From Acidimicrobiales bacterium (lineage in GTDB: Bacteria; Actinomycetota; Acidimicrobiia; Acidimicrobiales; Aldehydirespiratoraceae), in assembly GCA_029263215.1 (NCBI GenBank), contig JAJCXY010000126.1, forward strand, positions 15,114 to 79,113: DNA of 64,000 bases, written 5' to 3'. Position numbers and translations under genes: made by a program. The notes beneath the pieces were generated by a model. The model had not been told where the DNA came from. It was given only the letters and a program-made list of their open reading frames with translations, and made no database searches. Below are positions 10,527-50,780 of this stretch, in pieces. Positions within the stretch are counted from its first letter, which is position 1; each line of letters begins with the position of its first letter.

Positions 10527-13340
10527 TCAGCCGTCGAGGGTGCGCTCGAGTTCGCGCTCCTCGTAGGTCTCGATCATGTCGCCTTCCTTGAGGTCCTGGA
10601 AGTCGGACAGGCCGATACCGCATTCGTAGCCGGCAGCCACCTCGCGGGCGTCTTCCTTGAACCGCCTCAGCGAGCTGACCTCACCCTTCCAGATGATCGT
10701 GCCCTCACGCAGAAAGCGCACCTTCGAACCTCGCTTGATGGCGCCGTTCTGCACCAGGCAACCTGCGATTGCACCGATCCTCGGCACGCGGAAGATCTCG
10801 CGGACCTCGGCATCGCCGGTGACCACTTCCTCGAACTTCGGAGCGAGCATGCCGACCATCGCGGCCTCGATGTCCTCGAGCAGCTTGTAGATGATCTCGT
10901 AGGTGCGGATCTCGACGTCTTCCTCGTCGGCGAGTTCGCGCGCCTTGCGATCGGGGCGAACATTGAATCCGATCAAGGTGGCGTTGGAAGCTCCGGCCAG
11001 TTGGATGTCATTTTCGGTGATGCCACCGACTCCACGATGGACGAAACCGATCTTGACCTCGTCGCGTTCGAGCTTGCGCAGACTCTCGGTGACGGCTTCG
11101 AGCGAACCGTTGACGTCGGCCTTGACCACCATGTTGAGGGTGGCAGCCTCCCCGCGCTGGATCTGCTCGAAGATGTCTTCGAGCTTGGCGCCACCAGACA
11201 AGGCATGAGCCTCGCGGCCGAGGCTCGACTGACGCTGCCAATGCTCACGCGTATCAGCCACACGACTGGCGACCTTCTCAGTGGGGGCGACCACGAACTC
11301 GTCGCCGGCCCTCGCAACATCGGAAAGGCCGAGCACCTGAACCGGCGTGGACGGACCTGCTTCCTTGACGTTTTCACCCTGGTCGTTGATGAGGGCGCGA
11401 ACGCGGCCCCATGCCGCGCCGGCAACCATCGGATCGCCCACCTTGAGGGTTCCGCTCTGGACCAGCACCGTGGCCACCGGACCACGACCGATGTCGAGGT
11501 TGGCTTCGAGCACCACGCCGGCCGCCCGGCCTTCAGCGCTGCCGCGGAGGTCCTCGACTTCGGCGACGAGCAGGAGCTGATCGAGCAGGTCGTCGATGCC
11601 CACATTTTGCAGGGCGGAGATCTCCGCGAAGATCGTTTCGCCTCCCCACGCCTCGGGAACGAGGCCGTGCTCGGCCACACCGGCGATCGCCTTTTGCACA
11701 TCGGCGTTTTCGCGGTCGATTTTGTTGACCGCCACCACGATGGGCACTTCAGCCGCTTTCGCGTGGTTGATGGCCTCGATGGTCTGGGGCATCACGCCAT
11801 CGTCGGCGGCCACCATCAACACGACGATGTCGGTGGAGGTGGCGCCGCGTGAACGCATAGCGGTGAACGCCTCATGGCCCGGAGTGTCGATGAAGGTGAT
11901 GCTGTTTCCGTCGCGCTCGACCTGGTAGGCGCCGATGTGCTGGGTGATGCCACCGGCTTCGCCCTCCACGACGTTGGCGTCGCGGATTCGGTCGAGAAGT
12001 AGGGTCTTGCCGTGGTCGACGTGGCCCATCACGGTGATCACCGGTGGACGATGGGGCGCCTCGGCGCCTGACTCGGCATCGACATTGAGGAGCTTCTGGA
12101 GCTCTACTTCCTGCTCTTCACCCGGGTCGACGAGGCGGATCTCTGCCCCGACTTCAGCGGCGAACAACTCGAGCATGTCGTCGGAGAGAGACTGGGTGGC
12201 GGTGACCATCTCGCCCGCTTGCATGAGGAAGCGCACGACATCGGCAGCGGTGCGGTTGAGCTTGGGGCCGAGATCGAGGGCGGTGGAGGCCCGTTCGACC
12301 ACCACTTCTCCCTCGGGGACCGGAGCATCCTCTGGCGTGTATGAGGGCGCGTCCATCGGCTGGAGCTCTTCGCGGCTACGACGACGACGACCCTTTCGGC
12401 GCGGCGGGCGTCCGCCGGGGCCACCCCGGCCTCCGCCGGGACCACCACGACCGGGAGGCCCACCACGACCGGCAGGCGGTGCACCTGCGCCGGGCACGGA
12501 CTCACGGGGGCCACCGGGGCGGCGACCACCGGGCATGGGTCCACGAGATGGAGTGCTCGGACCACCGGAACGGCCGGGGGCCGAAGGGCGCGCGCCTCTT
12601 CCGCCCGGAGGGGGCGGGATGGCACGACCGCTGGTGGAGCGGGGAGGAGGAGGAATCGGCTTGCCCGACCCTGACGTGGGGCTGGCTCCGGCACGCTTCG
12701 CCGGATCGACCGCAACCTTCTTGACAACCTTCTTGACGACCTTCTTGACGACCTTCTTGACAGCCGGGGCAGCTGCCACAGGGGGCGGGGTCTCCTCGGC
12801 GATGGGGGCGCGCTTCGGTGGAGCCGCACTTCCACTCGAACTGATGACGCGCTTCGGCGCGCTGGAAGACTCCGCCGGCGCTTCTTCCTCTACCGGAGCC
12901 TCTACAACCGGGGGCTCTTCCACAGCAGGGGGAGCCTCGACCACTTCAGGAGCCGGCGTCTCGACCTCGGAGATGATTTCGGGCTGGGGCGGGGTGGCTT
13001 GCTCGCCAGAGGTGTCGTAGTCGGCGTCGGACTTGGTGGATTTCTTCGCCACCTTCTTGGCCGACTTCTTCGCCACCTTCTTGGCCGACTTCTTCGCCAC
13101 CTTCTTCGTCGACTTCTTGGCCGCCTTCTTGGCGGTCTTCTTGGCCGGCTCGGGCGGCTGCTCGTCGCGGGTCAGGCCCTCGCGCTCGGCCTTACGACGG
13201 ACACGATCGGCCTGGGCATCGACAATGCTCGACGAATGGCTCTTGACACCGATCCCGAGCGCGTCGGCGAGGTCGAGGGTCTCCTTGTTGGTGAGTCCCA
13301 ACTCGCGAGCGAGTTCGTAGACGCGAATATTGGATGGCAC
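10527..13340 (-). CDS. infB: Translation initiation factor IF-2
   Basis: [11 protein letters not shown]-domain, [20 protein letters not shown]. Confidence 0.98.
12712..12761 (-). repeat. 12-bp tandem repeat in infB (KKVV repeats)
   Basis: Repeated ACCTTCTTGACR unit on the + strand. Confidence 0.85.
13032..13146 (-). repeat. 12/24-bp tandem repeat in infB (KKxA histone-like lysine repeats)
   Basis: Repeated TTCTTCGCCACCTTCTTGGCCGAC unit; protein [18 protein letters not shown]. Confidence 0.88.
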
Positions 13341-35418: not shown

Positions 35419-36864
35419 TTAATTCAATCCGGGGAAGTCCCCTGTTTCCAACCCCGGAAGCGACAATGGCGACTTAGGTACCTTGGCCGGACCCTTCTCG
35501 GTGACCCTTCCGCCCTTGTGGCGGCCCCCCTTTTTGCCCTTCCTGCCCTTGTTTCGGTTCTTCGGATTCATCTTCTTGGTGCCGAACCCGGCGAACTGCT
35601 TCATCATCTTGCGCATCTGGGAGAATTGGTCGAGGAGTTGCTTCACGTCGCTCGACGACTGGCCACAGCCCGCGGCGATGCGTTGGCGACGAGACCCGTC
35701 GATGATCTCGGGATTGACGCGCTCGTCGGGGGTCATCGAGCGGATGATTCCTTCGATGCGGTCGACCTGCTTGTCGTCGATCTCGACGTCGCGGGCCTCC
35801 TTCGGGATTCCCGGCATCATGCCCATCAGGCTTCCGATGGATCCCATCTTCTTGATCTGTTGCATCTGCTCGAGGAAGTCCTCGAGGGTGAAGGTGCCTT
35901 CGAGGAGGCGTGCCGCGGTCTCCTCGGCTTCTTCCTTTTCGAAGGCCTCCTCGGCTTTTTCGATGAGGGTTTCGACATCGCCCATGCCGAGGATGCGGCT
36001 GGCGAGTCGGTCGGGATGGAAGGTTTCGAACTCGTCGAGCTTCTCGCCGGTGGACGCGAACGCGATCGGCTTGCCGACGACCTCCTTGACCGAAAGGGCG
36101 GCACCGCCTCGGGCATCGCCGTCGAGCTTGGTGAGGATGACACCGTCGAGTTCGAGGGTTTCGTTGAACGCGTGAGCGGTGGTGACCGCGTCTTGGCCGG
36201 TCATCGCGTCGATCACCAGGAAGGTGTAGTGGGGTTCGACCGCATCGGAGATGTGGCGCACCTCGGCCATCATCGCCTCGTCGATGGCGAGTCGACCGGC
36301 GGTGTCGACGATCACGACATCACGTCCCGTGCGGTTGGCCTCCGCTATGGCGGCTCCCGCCACTGCGACGGGGCCGATGGGCTCGGAATACACCGGAACG
36401 CCCACCTGGGCGCCGAGGGTGCGGAGCTGCTCGACCGCGGCCGGCCGTTGGAGATCGGCTCCCACCAGCAGGGGGTTGCGGCCCTGCTTTTTGAACCACT
36501 GGGCGAGTTTGCCCGCGTTGGTGGTTTTGCCTGCGCCCTGCAGGCCGGCCATGAGTACCACGGTGGGCGGCTTGCCCGCGTAGTTGATCTTCATCGACTC
36601 GCCACCGAGGCTGGTGGTGAGCTCGCCGAGCACGATCTTTGTCACCTGCTGGGCAGGATTGAGTGCTCCGGAAAGCTCCTCGCCCTCGGCCCGGACCCGG
36701 ATGCGACCGACCATCGTCTTGACGACATCGAGGTTGACGTCGGCCTCCAGCAGGGCGAGTCGGATCTCGCGGAGGGTCTCGTCGATGTCTTCCTGGCTCA
36801 GCTTGCCGCGGCCGCGGATCCGGCTGAATATGCCGTCGAATCGGTCTGAGAGGTTCTCGAACAT
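35419..36864 (-). CDS. ffh: Signal recognition particle protein
   Basis: GLQGAGKTT, DTAGR, TKLDGDARGG, RILGMGD; Met-rich M domain. Confidence 0.98.
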   Translation of the reverse strand: MFENLSDRFDGIFSRIRGRGKLSQEDIDETLREIRLALLEADVNLDVVKTMVGRIRVRAEGEELSGALNPAQQVTKIVLGELTTSLGGESMKINYAGKPPTVVLMAGLQGAGKTTNAGKLAQWFKKQGRNPLLVGADLQRPAAVEQLRTLGAQVGVPVYSEPIGPVAVAGAAIAEANRTGRDVVIVDTAGRLAIDEAMMAEVRHISDAVEPHYTFLVIDAMTGQDAVTTAHAFNETLELDGVILTKLDGDARGGAALSVKEVVGKPIAFASTGEKLDEFETFHPDRLASRILGMGDVETLIEKAEEAFEKEEAEETAARLLEGTFTLEDFLEQMQQIKKMGSIGSLMGMMPGIPKEARDVEIDDKQVDRIEGIIRSMTPDERVNPEIIDGSRRQRIAAGCGQSSSDVKQLLDQFSQMRKMMKQFAGFGTKKMNPKNRNKGRKGKKGGRHKGGRVTEKGPAKVPKSPLSLPGLETGDFPGLN

Positions 36865-45934: not shown

Positions 45935-46696
45935 TCACAGCGACGACCAGAACGAGATCAGGGCATCGGCCGCCATCTCGGGACACTCCACCATCCACCA
46001 GTGACCTGCCCCTTCCAGGGTGGCGAGGCGGGCATCGAGACGAGCCGCGACATCACCGGCAAGAGCGCTGGACACGTAGGGATCTTCGGTGGGATCGATC
46101 AGGAGACTGGGACGACGAGGTGCGGCCGCCAAACGATCGGCGAGCAGGGTCATGGTGGGCTGCACCGAGGACCGGTAGAGACCGAGGATGCATCGGCCGG
46201 TCTCGGCGTCGAAACCGTCGGCCATCGCTCGAGCAATCGCCGGCGTGAGGCCGAAGCCGACATAGGTGGCGGTCCGCTCGTCGGAGGTCATCGCCACCAT
46301 CATCTCGATCACCGCCTCACCGAGTTCGGGTGTCTGCCATGCGGCCGCGGCCTCGTGCCACTCATAATCGGGATGGAGCATGCCGATGCAGTCGCTGGCC
46401 CAGCTGCGCAGCAGGTCGGGGCGCTCTGCCGCCACGGCGTAGGTATGACCCGCCCCCCAGTCGTGGCCGACCAGATCGATGCCATCGTCGGCGCCGGAGC
46501 TGAGCGATTCGAGTTGCTCGATCAGCCAGTCGCGATACCCGGTGGCCGACGCCTCCCAGCCATGGGTTACCGGCGCACCGAACCCCGGCGGAGACAGGGT
46601 TACCAGATCGTCGATACCTCGGCTGCGCAGGACGTCGTGCAGGGGACCCCAGATCGCATCAACCTCGGGAACACCGTGAACAAATACCTTGGGCAT
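45935..46696 (-). CDS. Alpha/beta hydrolase (epoxide hydrolase/dehalogenase-like, Asp nucleophile)
   Basis: HGVPE, PGFG, VGHDWGA, AGHW. Confidence 0.9.
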   Translation of the reverse strand: MPKVFVHGVPEVDAIWGPLHDVLRSRGIDDLVTLSPPGFGAPVTHGWEASATGYRDWLIEQLESLSSGADDGIDLVGHDWGAGHTYAVAAERPDLLRSWASDCIGMLHPDYEWHEAAAAWQTPELGEAVIEMMVAMTSDERTATYVGFGLTPAIARAMADGFDAETGRCILGLYRSSVQPTMTLLADRLAAAPRRPSLLIDPTEDPYVSSALAGDVAARLDARLATLEGAGHWWMVECPEMAADALISFWSSL

Positions 46697-46706
46697 GGGC
46701 CGCGCC

Positions 46707-47078
46707 TCAGCCGAACAACTCGGCCAGGCGTTCCTTGGCCTTCGAGTCGCCCAATGGCCTGCCGATGATCGCCTTGTCGTCGGTGACGATGATCGGACGC
46801 TGCAGGAGCTTCGGATGCTCGAGCAAGATGGCCACCACTGCATCGGGGTTGGCTACGTAGTCGTCGGCAACGAGGCCGAGCTTGGCGAACTGGGCGTCCT
46901 TGCGGACCAGGCCCTCCACCGGATCCTCGAGTTTGGCGATGATCGCGCGAAGGGTGGCCTCATCGGGCGGGGTCTTCAGATAGCGCACCTCATCGAAATC
47001 GACTCTCATGTCCGTGGCGACCGCCACGGCATTGTTCGAAGACGTTCAATTGGGGTTGTGGTAGATGGTGATGCCCAC
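46707..47078 (-). CDS. arsC: ArsC-family (glutaredoxin-type arsenate reductase) protein, probable selenoprotein with UGA at codon 11
   Basis: AGAGGAG Shine-Dalgarno, GTG 47078, MGITIYHNPN-TGA-TSSNNAV..., in frame with ORF 46707..47027; LLQRPII and IGRP conserved. Confidence 0.85.
47008..47032 (-). promoter_or_regulatory. Bacterial SECIS-like hairpin
   Basis: ATG-CCGTGGC-GGTC-GCCACGG-a-CAT; the loop starts with G after a 23-nt spacer from the UGA (47046-47048). Confidence 0.75.
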
Positions 47079-47172
47079 CGCTGCTCCTCTCCCGGCCCAC
47101 GGCCGAGGTTGTCACGACCCAGGTCTTCTGGATTGGTGGCGAACCGTAGTGGGTCACGCCAGACTCTCCCCC

Positions 47173-47790
47173 ATGGGCATCTACCGCGAACAGATTCTCC
47201 CTCGCCTGATCGACCGCATGCTCGGCACCGAAGCTGTGGGAAAGGACCGCAGCCGCACCACTCCCGGCCTTCGCGGCACCATCGTGGAGATCGGATTCGG
47301 ATCGGGTCTCAACATCGAGCACTACCCCGATGAGGTCAACAAGGTGTACGCGGTCGACCCTGCACTCGTGGGGCGCAAGCTCGCCGCGGATCGGGTGGCG
47401 GCTTCACCAGCGAACGTCGAGTACGTGGGTCTCGACGGTGCGGCCCTCCCTCTCAGCGACGAATCCTGCGACGGCGCCTTGTCGACCTACACCCTCTGCA
47501 CGATCCCCGACGTCGCCGGAGCCATCAGCGAGATCCATCGCGTGCTCACTCCCGGCGCAAGATTCCACGTACTCGAACACGGACTGGCACGAGACCACAG
47601 CGTCGCCACATGGCAGGGCCGTCTCAATCCGATCCAGAACCGTTTGGGCGACGGTTGCAACCTCGACCGTGATCATGCGGCCCTGCTCACCGATGGCGGG
47701 TTCGAGATCGATGAGCACGAGGAGTGGTACGGGAAGGGTCCGAAGTCGCTGACCGCCCTCTACCGGCTGGTGGCTCGCAAGCCGGGCTGA
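47173..47790 (+). CDS. Class I SAM-dependent methyltransferase
   Basis: VEIGFGSGLN, YTLCTIPD, RVLTPGARF...EHG. Confidence 0.9.
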   Translation: MGIYREQILPRLIDRMLGTEAVGKDRSRTTPGLRGTIVEIGFGSGLNIEHYPDEVNKVYAVDPALVGRKLAADRVAASPANVEYVGLDGAALPLSDESCDGALSTYTLCTIPDVAGAISEIHRVLTPGARFHVLEHGLARDHSVATWQGRLNPIQNRLGDGCNLDRDHAALLTDGGFEIDEHEEWYGKGPKSLTALYRLVARKPG

Positions 47791-50306: not shown

Positions 50307-50780
50307 TCAGGTGCTGGTGAAAGCCTCGGCGGTTGCCCCAGTGACCACCAGCAGTTGATCGGGGGTGATCGGGAAGCACGAGTCGGGAGTGCCCGCGGCG
50401 CCGTAAACGGTGGTGTGGGCGAGCAGGTCGGGGTCGATGAAGGTGGGAATCGCCTCGACGTGCCCGAACGGTGGGGTTCCACCGATCGAGTAGCCGGTTG
50501 CGTCGCGGGCTTCTTCGGCGGTGGCCATCCGCACCTTGCCGCCCACCACGTCGCTGAGGCGCTGGAGGTCGATTCGGTTGTGGCCCGCGGTGAGCGCCAA
50601 CACAGGCCCGGTGGGACCCGTGCACACCAACGACTTCACGATCTGGGCCACTTCACAGCCGATGGCAACCGCGGCATCCACCGCAGTGCGGGTGCCCGCC
50701 GGGTAGCGCACGGGCCGAACATCGACACCCGCCGCTTCGGCGGACCGGATGAATCGGGTGAGGGCATCTTCGCTGGCCAT
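50307..50780 (-). CDS. YbaK/EbsC (aminoacyl-tRNA deacylase family) protein
   Basis: TRTAVDAA, QIVKSLV, TGYSIGGTPPFGH, GAAG. Confidence 0.92.
   Translation of the reverse strand: MASEDALTRFIRSAEAAGVDVRPVRYPAGTRTAVDAAVAIGCEVAQIVKSLVCTGPTGPVLALTAGHNRIDLQRLSDVVGGKVRMATAEEARDATGYSIGGTPPFGHVEAIPTFIDPDLLAHTTVYGAAGTPDSCFPITPDQLLVVTGATAEAFTST

Follow-up and report, generated by a model that had tools for sequence, protein, structure and literature searches.

The DNA analysed here, called the window throughout, is a stretch of 64,000 nucleotides from an Acidimicrobiales bacterium (Actinomycetota; Acidimicrobiia; Aldehydirespiratoraceae; GenBank assembly GCA_029263215.1, contig JAJCXY010000126.1, positions 15,114 to 79,113). 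Its minus strand carries a short gene of the ArsC family (PF03960) with an in-frame TGA where related proteins have their catalytic cysteine (Cys), and a hairpin follows a short distance past this codon. Based on the reading frame, the conservation of codon and hairpin among relatives and the selenocysteine (Sec) machinery in the same assembly, we consider it very probable that the locus is a genuine Sec-encoding gene, specifying a 123-residue ArsC-family selenoprotein of the glutaredoxin fold. That selenium is incorporated at the UGA is what we infer from these data.

The features discussed are collected in Table 1. From a GTG start codon preceded by a Shine-Dalgarno-like motif, the N-terminal translation reads V/M-GITIYHNPN-(TGA)-TSSNNAVAVAT and continues unbroken into the open reading frame (ORF) that is called under translation table 11. 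An earlier note on this DNA had described the Shine-Dalgarno motif, the GTG, the frame and the TGA, all of which are present on the minus strand. The read-through product has 123 amino acids (aa). Table-11 calling drops the first 17 residues, including the catalytic position, and the protein called in the window (P0002) is a 106-aa fragment whose GTG start lies within the stem of the hairpin.

Truncation by annotation pipelines, which the earlier note foresaw, is common in the databases. Among the best 120 of the 1154 database relatives considered, most are fragments of 100-106 aa that lack the catalytic residue, and 6 reach at least 95% query coverage. These comprise five Cys forms (P0069, P0109, P0110, P0115 and P0119) and the entry P0004; the names given to the relatives are "arsenate reductase" or none. 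P0004, a public record of 122 aa with 74% identity to the query, has Gly exactly at the Sec position (HNPN-G-QSS) and is probably a gene call made under a translation table in which TGA encodes Gly. The mis-annotation is systematic, and function inferred from the fragment entries would misjudge the protein.

Table 1. Features of the putative Sec-containing ArsC gene, of the predicted Sec apparatus and of other loci discussed. Positions without a contig name refer to the window; contigs named C belong to the same assembly.
Feature	Position	Strand	Remarks
Shine-Dalgarno-like AGAGGAG	47084..47090	-	Read in the sequence; 5-nt spacer before the start codon
GTG start of the full-length gene	47076..47078	-	Orthologues start with ATG or GTG, 8-12 codons before the TGA
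Full-length coding sequence, ArsC-family (PF03960) reductase	46707..47078	-	123 codons plus stop; Sec predicted as residue 11; from translation
In-frame TGA, putative Sec codon	47046..47048	-	Residue 11, motif HNPN-U-TSS (UxxS); aligns with Cys12 of R773 ArsC
Putative Sec insertion sequence (SECIS) hairpin	47008..47032	-	Fold and comparative conservation
Core stem, 5' arm CCGUGGC	47029-47023	-	
Apical loop GGUC	47022-47019	-	
Core stem, 3' arm GCCACGG	47018-47012	-	
Bulged A	47011	-	Beside the lower AUG/CAU extension
106-aa table-11 ORF	46707..47027	-	Annotation artefact; GTG 47027-47025 inside the 5' arm of the stem
Arg59 codon	46902..46904	-	Corresponds to Arg60 of R773 ArsC; alignment
Arg94 codon	46797..46799	-	Corresponds to Arg94 of R773 ArsC; alignment
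Arg107 codon	46758..46760	-	Corresponds to Arg107 of R773 ArsC; IGRP aligns with IGRP of 3rdw
TGA stop of the full-length coding sequence	46709-46707	-	
Longest ORF of the divergent methyltransferase (Methyltransf_11)	47065-47790	+	
tRNA-Sec	C78		64 bits (gathering score 47); ARAGORN tRNA-SeC, anticodon tca
selA	C78:28194-29300		378.8 bits, above curated cut-off
selB	C78:27121-28176		273.4 bits, above curated cut-off; adjoins selA
selD	C18		359.8 bits, above curated cut-off; one in-frame TGA
SelD Sec site, HGAG-U-GCK	C18, TGA 50490-50492		Loop beginning GGUC, 32 nt past the UGA
Glutathione peroxidase, NVASA-U-GLT	C127, TGA 12047-12049		PF00255, 122.4 bits; 1 TGA; loop beginning GGUC, 21 nt
Thioredoxin-like protein, WAPW-U-PTC	C30, TGA 36008-36010		Assigned by motif alone; loop beginning GGUC, 26 nt
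arsR-acr3 pair (L196)	C111:9413-13402		

With C substituted for U, the product scores 57 bits against the Pfam ArsC model PF03960 (cut-off 24). Of the NCBIfam models, TIGR00014 for glutaredoxin-type arsenate reductase fits best, with 91.8 bits; the models for Spx and YffB give weaker matches, far under their cut-offs. The best matches among solved structures are arsenate reductases (3rdw, E 1.5e-14; R773 ArsC structures 1jzw and 1i9d, E 1.6e-13), and Spx proteins rank far behind them; these matches are enough to establish the fold. Because the segment ITIYHNPN-U-TSS lies on ITIYHNPA-C-GTS of 1i9d, the UGA occupies the place of Cys12 of R773 ArsC, and the placement of the UGA at the catalytic Cys in the earlier note therefore stands. 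Sec in the place of Cys12 would be a chalcogen substitution, in which the nucleophile is not lost. The residues equivalent to Arg60, Arg94 and Arg107 of R773 ArsC (Arg59, Arg94 and Arg107 here) are invariant in all 63 distinct homologues with the UGA at the Cys position (U-forms) and in all 30 distinct Cys forms. In E. coli ArsC this triad is essential, and it is the main difference from YffB, which retains one arginine (PMC3169414).

Among close relatives, the TGA is conserved. The read-through search took in 41 genomes (those of the organism itself, its genus, its family and its order), and a homologue was found in 34 of them. One in-frame TGA is present in 25/25 genomes of the family, which span 11 genera and identities down to 63%, and in one genome each of two other families; in all 27 of these loci (L021-L047) the codon stands at the Cys column of (I/V)(Y/F)HNxx-U-xSS. 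The next-nearest homologues, in genomes G037 (46% identity) and G032 (45%), have TGC. selA was found in 27/27 U-form genomes, and gave no match in the Cys-form genomes G037 (95% complete) and G032 (99% complete). The earlier note had reasoned that close relatives with TGC or TGT and no hairpin would speak for a recent nonsense mutation. This is not what is found, given that all 25 family genomes keep both the TGA and the hairpin; the alternation of Cys and UGA for which it called is present at greater evolutionary distance.

A class-level sample of 401 genomes (Acidimicrobiia by record titles, homologues accepted at E up to 1e-15) shows the same pattern. A homologue was found in 145 of the 401 and an in-frame TGA in 43 rows; after inspection of the loci, including 19 that were fetched for this, the TGA stands at the Cys column in 42 genomes, and G324 proved to be a Cys form with its TGA elsewhere. 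selA is present in all 42 U-form genomes compared with 275/401 overall, which, because the genomes are kin, is a pattern rather than a statistic. The tallies of 145 and 275 take in a few unpublished genomes (G249, G309 and G418, and for selA also G290), and no U-form is among these. In one genus (g36), three genomes (G170, G229 and G252) have the U-form together with selA, and in G094 (99% complete), the remaining one, the gene is a Cys form that lacks the hairpin and a search for selA gave no match; this looks like a recent replacement of Sec by Cys accompanying loss of the Sec trait. The predicted alternation of Sec and Cys thus tracks the presence of selA.

The records of the close loci are titled Acidimicrobiales, Acidimicrobiaceae, Candidatus Microthrix, Ca. 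Aldehydirespiratoraceae and Ilumatobacteraceae. The closest named record (L116, 93% identical) carries the title 'uncultured Gammaproteobacteria bacterium'; the other close records are from Acidimicrobiia, and L116 is probably a mislabelled bin. Two of the genomes searched (G011 and G020) each have a further ArsC-family match that is less strong (identities of 41% and 34%) and likewise contains one in-frame TGA.

The hairpin in the window's own gene has a 7-bp core stem closed by the GGUC loop and a lower AUG/CAU extension, and RNAfold predicts the same structure. Numbered from the U of the UGA as 1, the arms occupy positions 20-26 and 31-37, the loop 27-30, and the two sides of the extension 17-19 and 39-41. 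Exactly 23 nt separate the UGA from the first G of the loop, within the 16-37 nt given for the distance between UGA and apical loop in bacterial SECIS elements (PMC10778597). The stem, loop, extension and spacer are all as the earlier note had drawn them; no bulged U was identified in the hairpin. The 71-nt fold has a z-score of -1.78 (7/200 dinucleotide shuffles are equally stable), and of -2.15 when compared with synonymous-codon randomisation of the same peptide (3/200 equally stable).

Several observations weigh against accepting the hairpin as a SECIS element too readily. An uninterrupted stem of at least 6 bp arises in the permitted window in 32% of the synonymous randomisations of the peptide, and a loose genome-wide filter for TGA plus hairpin returned 1040 candidates in this GC-rich genome. 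The hairpin of the single sequence is moderately better than chance and is weak evidence alone. A scan of positions 46900-47150 against Rfam at E up to 10 returned no family, and the SECIS models may not cover this lineage. Within the family the stem is nearly invariant (98.2% pairing), with 1 compensatory pair and a covariation score that 39/500 shuffles reach. In the wider set, 11 of 61 distinct Sec sequences fail the stem criterion given below, mostly members of a divergent HNPG-U-G(Q/K)(S/A)R subgroup with interrupted stems, and minimum free energy (MFE) z-scores separate the two forms modestly (medians of -1.21 for Sec and -0.31 for Cys; Mann-Whitney p = 0.011, from related sequences). 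Given the weak signal of the single sequence, the case rests on comparative evidence.

Codon usage gives one line of such evidence. Over the hairpin, the six four-fold-degenerate codons (A-V-A-V-A-T) have a majority-codon fraction of 0.94 among the 27 orthologues, compared with 0.61 for the 45 other four-fold-degenerate columns of the gene. Covariation gives another, once seven sequences from other families are added to make a GGUC-type set of 32 sequences (31 distinct). In this set 98.6% of cells pair, and compensatory double changes, for which the earlier note had asked, occur in 3/7 pairs (9 cells: G-C to U-A in 6, G-C to A-U in 2 and C-G to G-C in 1). For covariation the set scores 0.242, compared with 0.126 for shuffled sets, and 0/500 shuffles attain its value; every slid register scores at most 0.045. 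Two other families of the order have a second architecture, GCAAUGC-CGUG[C/A]-GCAUUGC, with the loop 17 nt past the UGA, 90.8% pairing and one compensatory pair (U-A to C-G, twice). Both loop types have G-U at loop positions 2-3. In the SECIS of E. coli fdhF the apical loop likewise has the sequence GGUC, and SelB makes contact with the G and U of this loop.

Sec and Cys forms also differ in whether a suitable stem is present at all. MFE z-scores are blunt in a GC-rich setting, and the MFE of the A/U-rich type-B stems is no better than that of synonymous randomisations; we therefore adopted an explicit criterion of stem, loop and distance (at least 6 bp, a loop of 3-8 nt, 14-28 nt past the codon). 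Applied to all 93 loci, with L050 left out because the motif was mislocated there, it was passed by 50/61 distinct Sec sequences and 9/30 Cys sequences, compared with fractions of about 0.24 (Sec) and 0.19 (Cys) expected from synonymous recoding. The loop is GGUC in 29 and CGUG[C/A] in 16 of the Sec forms, and the hairpins of the Cys forms share no loop. The cleanest control is provided by nature: in two Cys forms (L062 and L073) the NAVRIAEELG peptide is identical to that of several Sec forms, yet the stem is absent, because their codons are AAC and AUC in place of AAU and AUU. Overall, the comparative evidence lifts the predicted hairpin far beyond chance. The divergent class-level subgroup (L084-L094, motif HNPG-U-G(Q/K/T)(S/A)(R/K)) has interrupted hairpins, for example GCGUGCUGGAGAUCCUGCGCG, of neither the GGUC nor the CGUG loop type.

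The genome appears equipped to decode the UGA. The assembly (4.05 Mb in 131 contigs, 94.8% complete, 3.67% contamination) contains tRNA-Sec (selC), selA, selB and selD, so that the Sec machinery implied by the earlier note is encoded in full. A binning artefact is unlikely, because 11 relatives (including G005, G006, G009 and G015-G018) carry both selA and the gene in its U-form on one contig (C1). Further Sec codons are predicted in SelD itself, in a glutathione peroxidase and in a thioredoxin-like protein; the latter two are the selenoprotein-like products among the 11 of the 1040 genome-wide candidates that were translated, the peroxidase being confirmed by profile. In SelD, the peroxidase and the thioredoxin-like protein, the loop lies 32, 21 and 26 nt past the UGA, also within the bacterial range of 16-37 nt (PMC10778597). 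Because their loops likewise begin with GGUC, the hairpin of the ArsC gene looks like the organism's own SECIS type. This lineage of Acidimicrobiia very probably uses Sec, in at least ArsC, SelD, glutathione peroxidase and the thioredoxin-like protein.

Other explanations of the TGA have to be weighed against a Sec codon. An error of sequencing or assembly would be conceivable in a draft of 131 contigs with the completeness and contamination given above. However, contigs from 4 public runs of 2 studies cover positions 46650-47150 with 0 differences at 47046-47048 (2 of the 4 runs are possibly the source of the assembly, and so not independent), and the same codon is found in every family relative. 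A contig from the second study (X5 strain, about 96% identical, depth 2) differs at 20/501 positions and yet keeps the TGA; its sole change in the stem, at 47028, turns a C-G pair into U-G. The independent contigs thus show nothing of the sequencing error that the earlier note named as a possible objection, and we regard such an error as exceedingly improbable. In a pseudogene with a recent nonsense mutation, the TGA would end a 10-residue peptide, and the locus would make only the 106-aa product from the GTG at 47027, or nothing. The length of the table-11 ORF and the predominance of 106- and 100-aa forms in the databases would fit this scenario. It is hard to reconcile with a TGA in the same column in 25/25 family genomes (to 63% identity) and in 42 genomes of the class, or with 10 upstream codons that remain in frame and in which the catalytic motif IYHNP is preserved. 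Moreover, a product truncated in this way would have neither nucleophile nor first strand, and the internal GTG falls within the conserved stem. We consider a pseudogene highly improbable.

The UGA might instead be read as Trp, Gly or Cys through an altered code or a suppressor tRNA, and the Gly of P0004 is what a table with TGA as Gly would print. Yet TGA is also the stop codon of this gene and of most of its orthologues, the genome has tRNA-Sec, selA, selB and selD, and other in-frame TGAs stand at the canonical Sec sites of SelD, glutathione peroxidase and the thioredoxin-like protein. Furthermore, the codon alternates with Cys in the homologues, not with Trp or Gly, and there is very little to recommend such a reading. 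The pseudogene, sequencing-error and altered-code explanations were rejected.

If the TGA is a Sec codon, translation would start at the GTG at 47078 and the ribosome would meet the UGA at codon 11. By analogy with the bacterial Sec system, the GGUC-looped hairpin in the mRNA, 23 nt downstream of the UGA, would act as the SECIS element and recruit SelB-GTP with Sec-tRNA(Sec) to the A site, where Sec would be inserted in place of termination. The likely chemistry of the product would be attack of the selenolate on arsenate or on a similar oxyanion or electrophile, with Arg59, Arg94 and Arg107 corresponding to the triad that binds the oxyanion in ArsC. Resolution would then involve a thiol of low molecular weight together with a redoxin. 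In Actinomycetota, mycothiol often takes the place of the glutathione/glutaredoxin couple.

A Sec-containing ArsC of the UxxS type is a known kind of protein since 2008, and the gene represents no new class of system. 'Arsenate reductase (ArsC) 1', with the motif UxxS and assigned to pfam03960, was listed as a selenoprotein family by Zhang and Gladyshev in the Global Ocean Sampling (GOS) marine metagenome, with 77 Sec sequences and 784 Cys homologues in their table (PMC2398784), and a 2022 review lists 'Arsenate reductase, COG1393 (ArsC), UxxS' (PMC9312934); the earlier note was right that such proteins had been reported. Matched by description, the GOS family and the present gene share the Pfam family, the UxxS motif (which reads U-T-S-S in this gene and U-x-S-S in its relatives), a Sec where the catalytic Cys would stand and many Cys homologues. 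Unlike those unassigned marine reads, the present gene is placed in a genome with Sec machinery, is a core gene of its family and occurs with two SECIS types. ArsC-like selenoproteins are also listed in Deltaproteobacteria (Desulfotalea and Desulfuromonas; PMC1794560), and UxxC entries appear as 'Arsenate reductase 2' in the GOS data (PMC2398784) and as 'Arsenate reductase-like' in the review (PMC9312934). These share with the present protein the ArsC/Spx superfamily and Sec at the first redox position, whereas the GOS and review entries are UxxC (cd03032, Spx-like) and the present gene has UxxS and the Arg triad. BSepDB uses an actinobacterial arsenate-reductase-like Cys protein with Sec homologues as a query example (PMC13326102). 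Acidimicrobiia are not mentioned in the portions considered of PMC2398784, PMC9312934 and PMC1794560 and the term has 0 occurrences in the BSepDB text (PMC13326102), which leaves room for a prior report elsewhere. What is added here is a genome-anchored member from Acidimicrobiia, evidence for a core gene across a family and a description of SECIS variants.

Compared with ArsC of plasmid R773 and E. coli (1i9d, 1jzw), the protein has the same fold family, a near-identical ITIYHNP-x-C/U segment and an equivalent nucleophile and Arg triad; it differs in the predicted Sec for Cys12, in length (123 vs 141 aa), in falling below the TIGR00014 cut-off and in lying outside an ars operon. The Spx and YffB branches of PF03960 have the thioredoxin-like fold in common with it, but it lacks the CxxC of Spx and has the full Arg triad in contrast to the one Arg of YffB (PMC3169414). 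Like the SECIS of E. coli fdhF, the hairpin is contained in the ORF, immediately 3' of the UGA, and has a loop distance in the 16-37 nt range (PMC10778597), and unlike it, it has a different stem sequence and no bulged U that we could identify.

The substrate is a separate question, and we put the chance that it is arsenate at about even. The intact Arg triad and an orphan ACR3 favour arsenate, and the distribution as a core gene and the lack of ars linkage favour a broader role. In the latter case, to which we give somewhat less than an even chance, the gene would encode a true selenoprotein that is not an arsenate reductase but a UxxS housekeeping selenol oxidoreductase whose substrate or partner is a different one, and the name ArsC would reflect the fold only. 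Points that weigh against arsenate begin with the TIGR00014 score, which is under the equivalog cut-off of 106.05. The gene is near-universal and single-copy in the family (25/25 genomes), unlike an accessory resistance gene, and it is the sole PF03960 gene of the genome, unlinked to the arsR-acr3 pair on another contig. Three genes of the low-molecular-weight phosphatase family are an alternative possible source of arsenate reduction. At 43 U-form loci with 1.5-kb flanks, a scan of the 100 largest of the 487 frames in these flanks turned up no ars gene. In the window the gene is followed downstream by an alpha/beta hydrolase and a GNAT gene, and its other neighbour is a divergent S-adenosylmethionine (SAM) methyltransferase. 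However, the flank scan covered 1.5 kb and the 100 longest frames only, and the window's neighbours are uninformative on function because the hydrolase, GNAT, methyltransferase and DUF3137-like genes are kept in 2-5 of 51 related loci. For arsenate speak also the solved structures matched best, which are arsenate reductases, and the invariance of a triad that is essential for ArsC and absent from YffB (PMC3169414). In addition, the ACR3 arsenite pump has no adjoining reductase: a PIN-domain gene and a DUF2180 gene border the arsR-acr3 pair, and the 1.5 kb around it contain no arsenate reductase.

Recurrent neighbours in the family would also fit a substrate other than arsenate. In about 20 family relatives (flanks of L022-L045), an AMP-binding (acyl-CoA synthetase-like) gene adjoins the Sec-ArsC gene, and on the other side there is often a Pyr_redox_2/Reductase_C flavoprotein, a luciferase-like monooxygenase or a Rieske oxygenase. 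This arrangement of AMP-binding and flavoprotein genes is lost in the organism's own genus, and in one family its place is taken by an ABC exporter and a carbonic anhydrase.

From the perspective of evolution, it is tempting, if speculative, to consider the UxxS Sec-ArsC of Acidimicrobiia as a core, vertically inherited housekeeping selenoenzyme outside the ars context, with a non-arsenate substrate or partner and perhaps tied to the neighbouring genes for an acyl-CoA synthetase and a flavoprotein reductase, and to suppose that its SECIS was rebuilt within one orthologous gene. The N-A-V codons (AAY GCC GUG) form part of the stem in the GGUC type (23 nt), and the end of the stem and the loop in the CGUG[C/A] type (17 nt). 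If this tentative idea is correct, the turnover of a SECIS element could be traced in one gene, as could reversion from Sec to Cys upon loss of selA, as in genus g36. Comprising 63 distinct Sec forms and 30 Cys forms, with two architectures of the SECIS, the homologues constitute a natural series suited to asking why a catalytic Sec persists and how a SECIS co-evolves with the peptide that it encodes.

Taken at its longest, the methyltransferase ORF, on the opposite strand, would share 14 nt with the 5' end of the Sec-ArsC gene. For the methyltransferase, the later start MGIYREQ at 47173 looks more likely.

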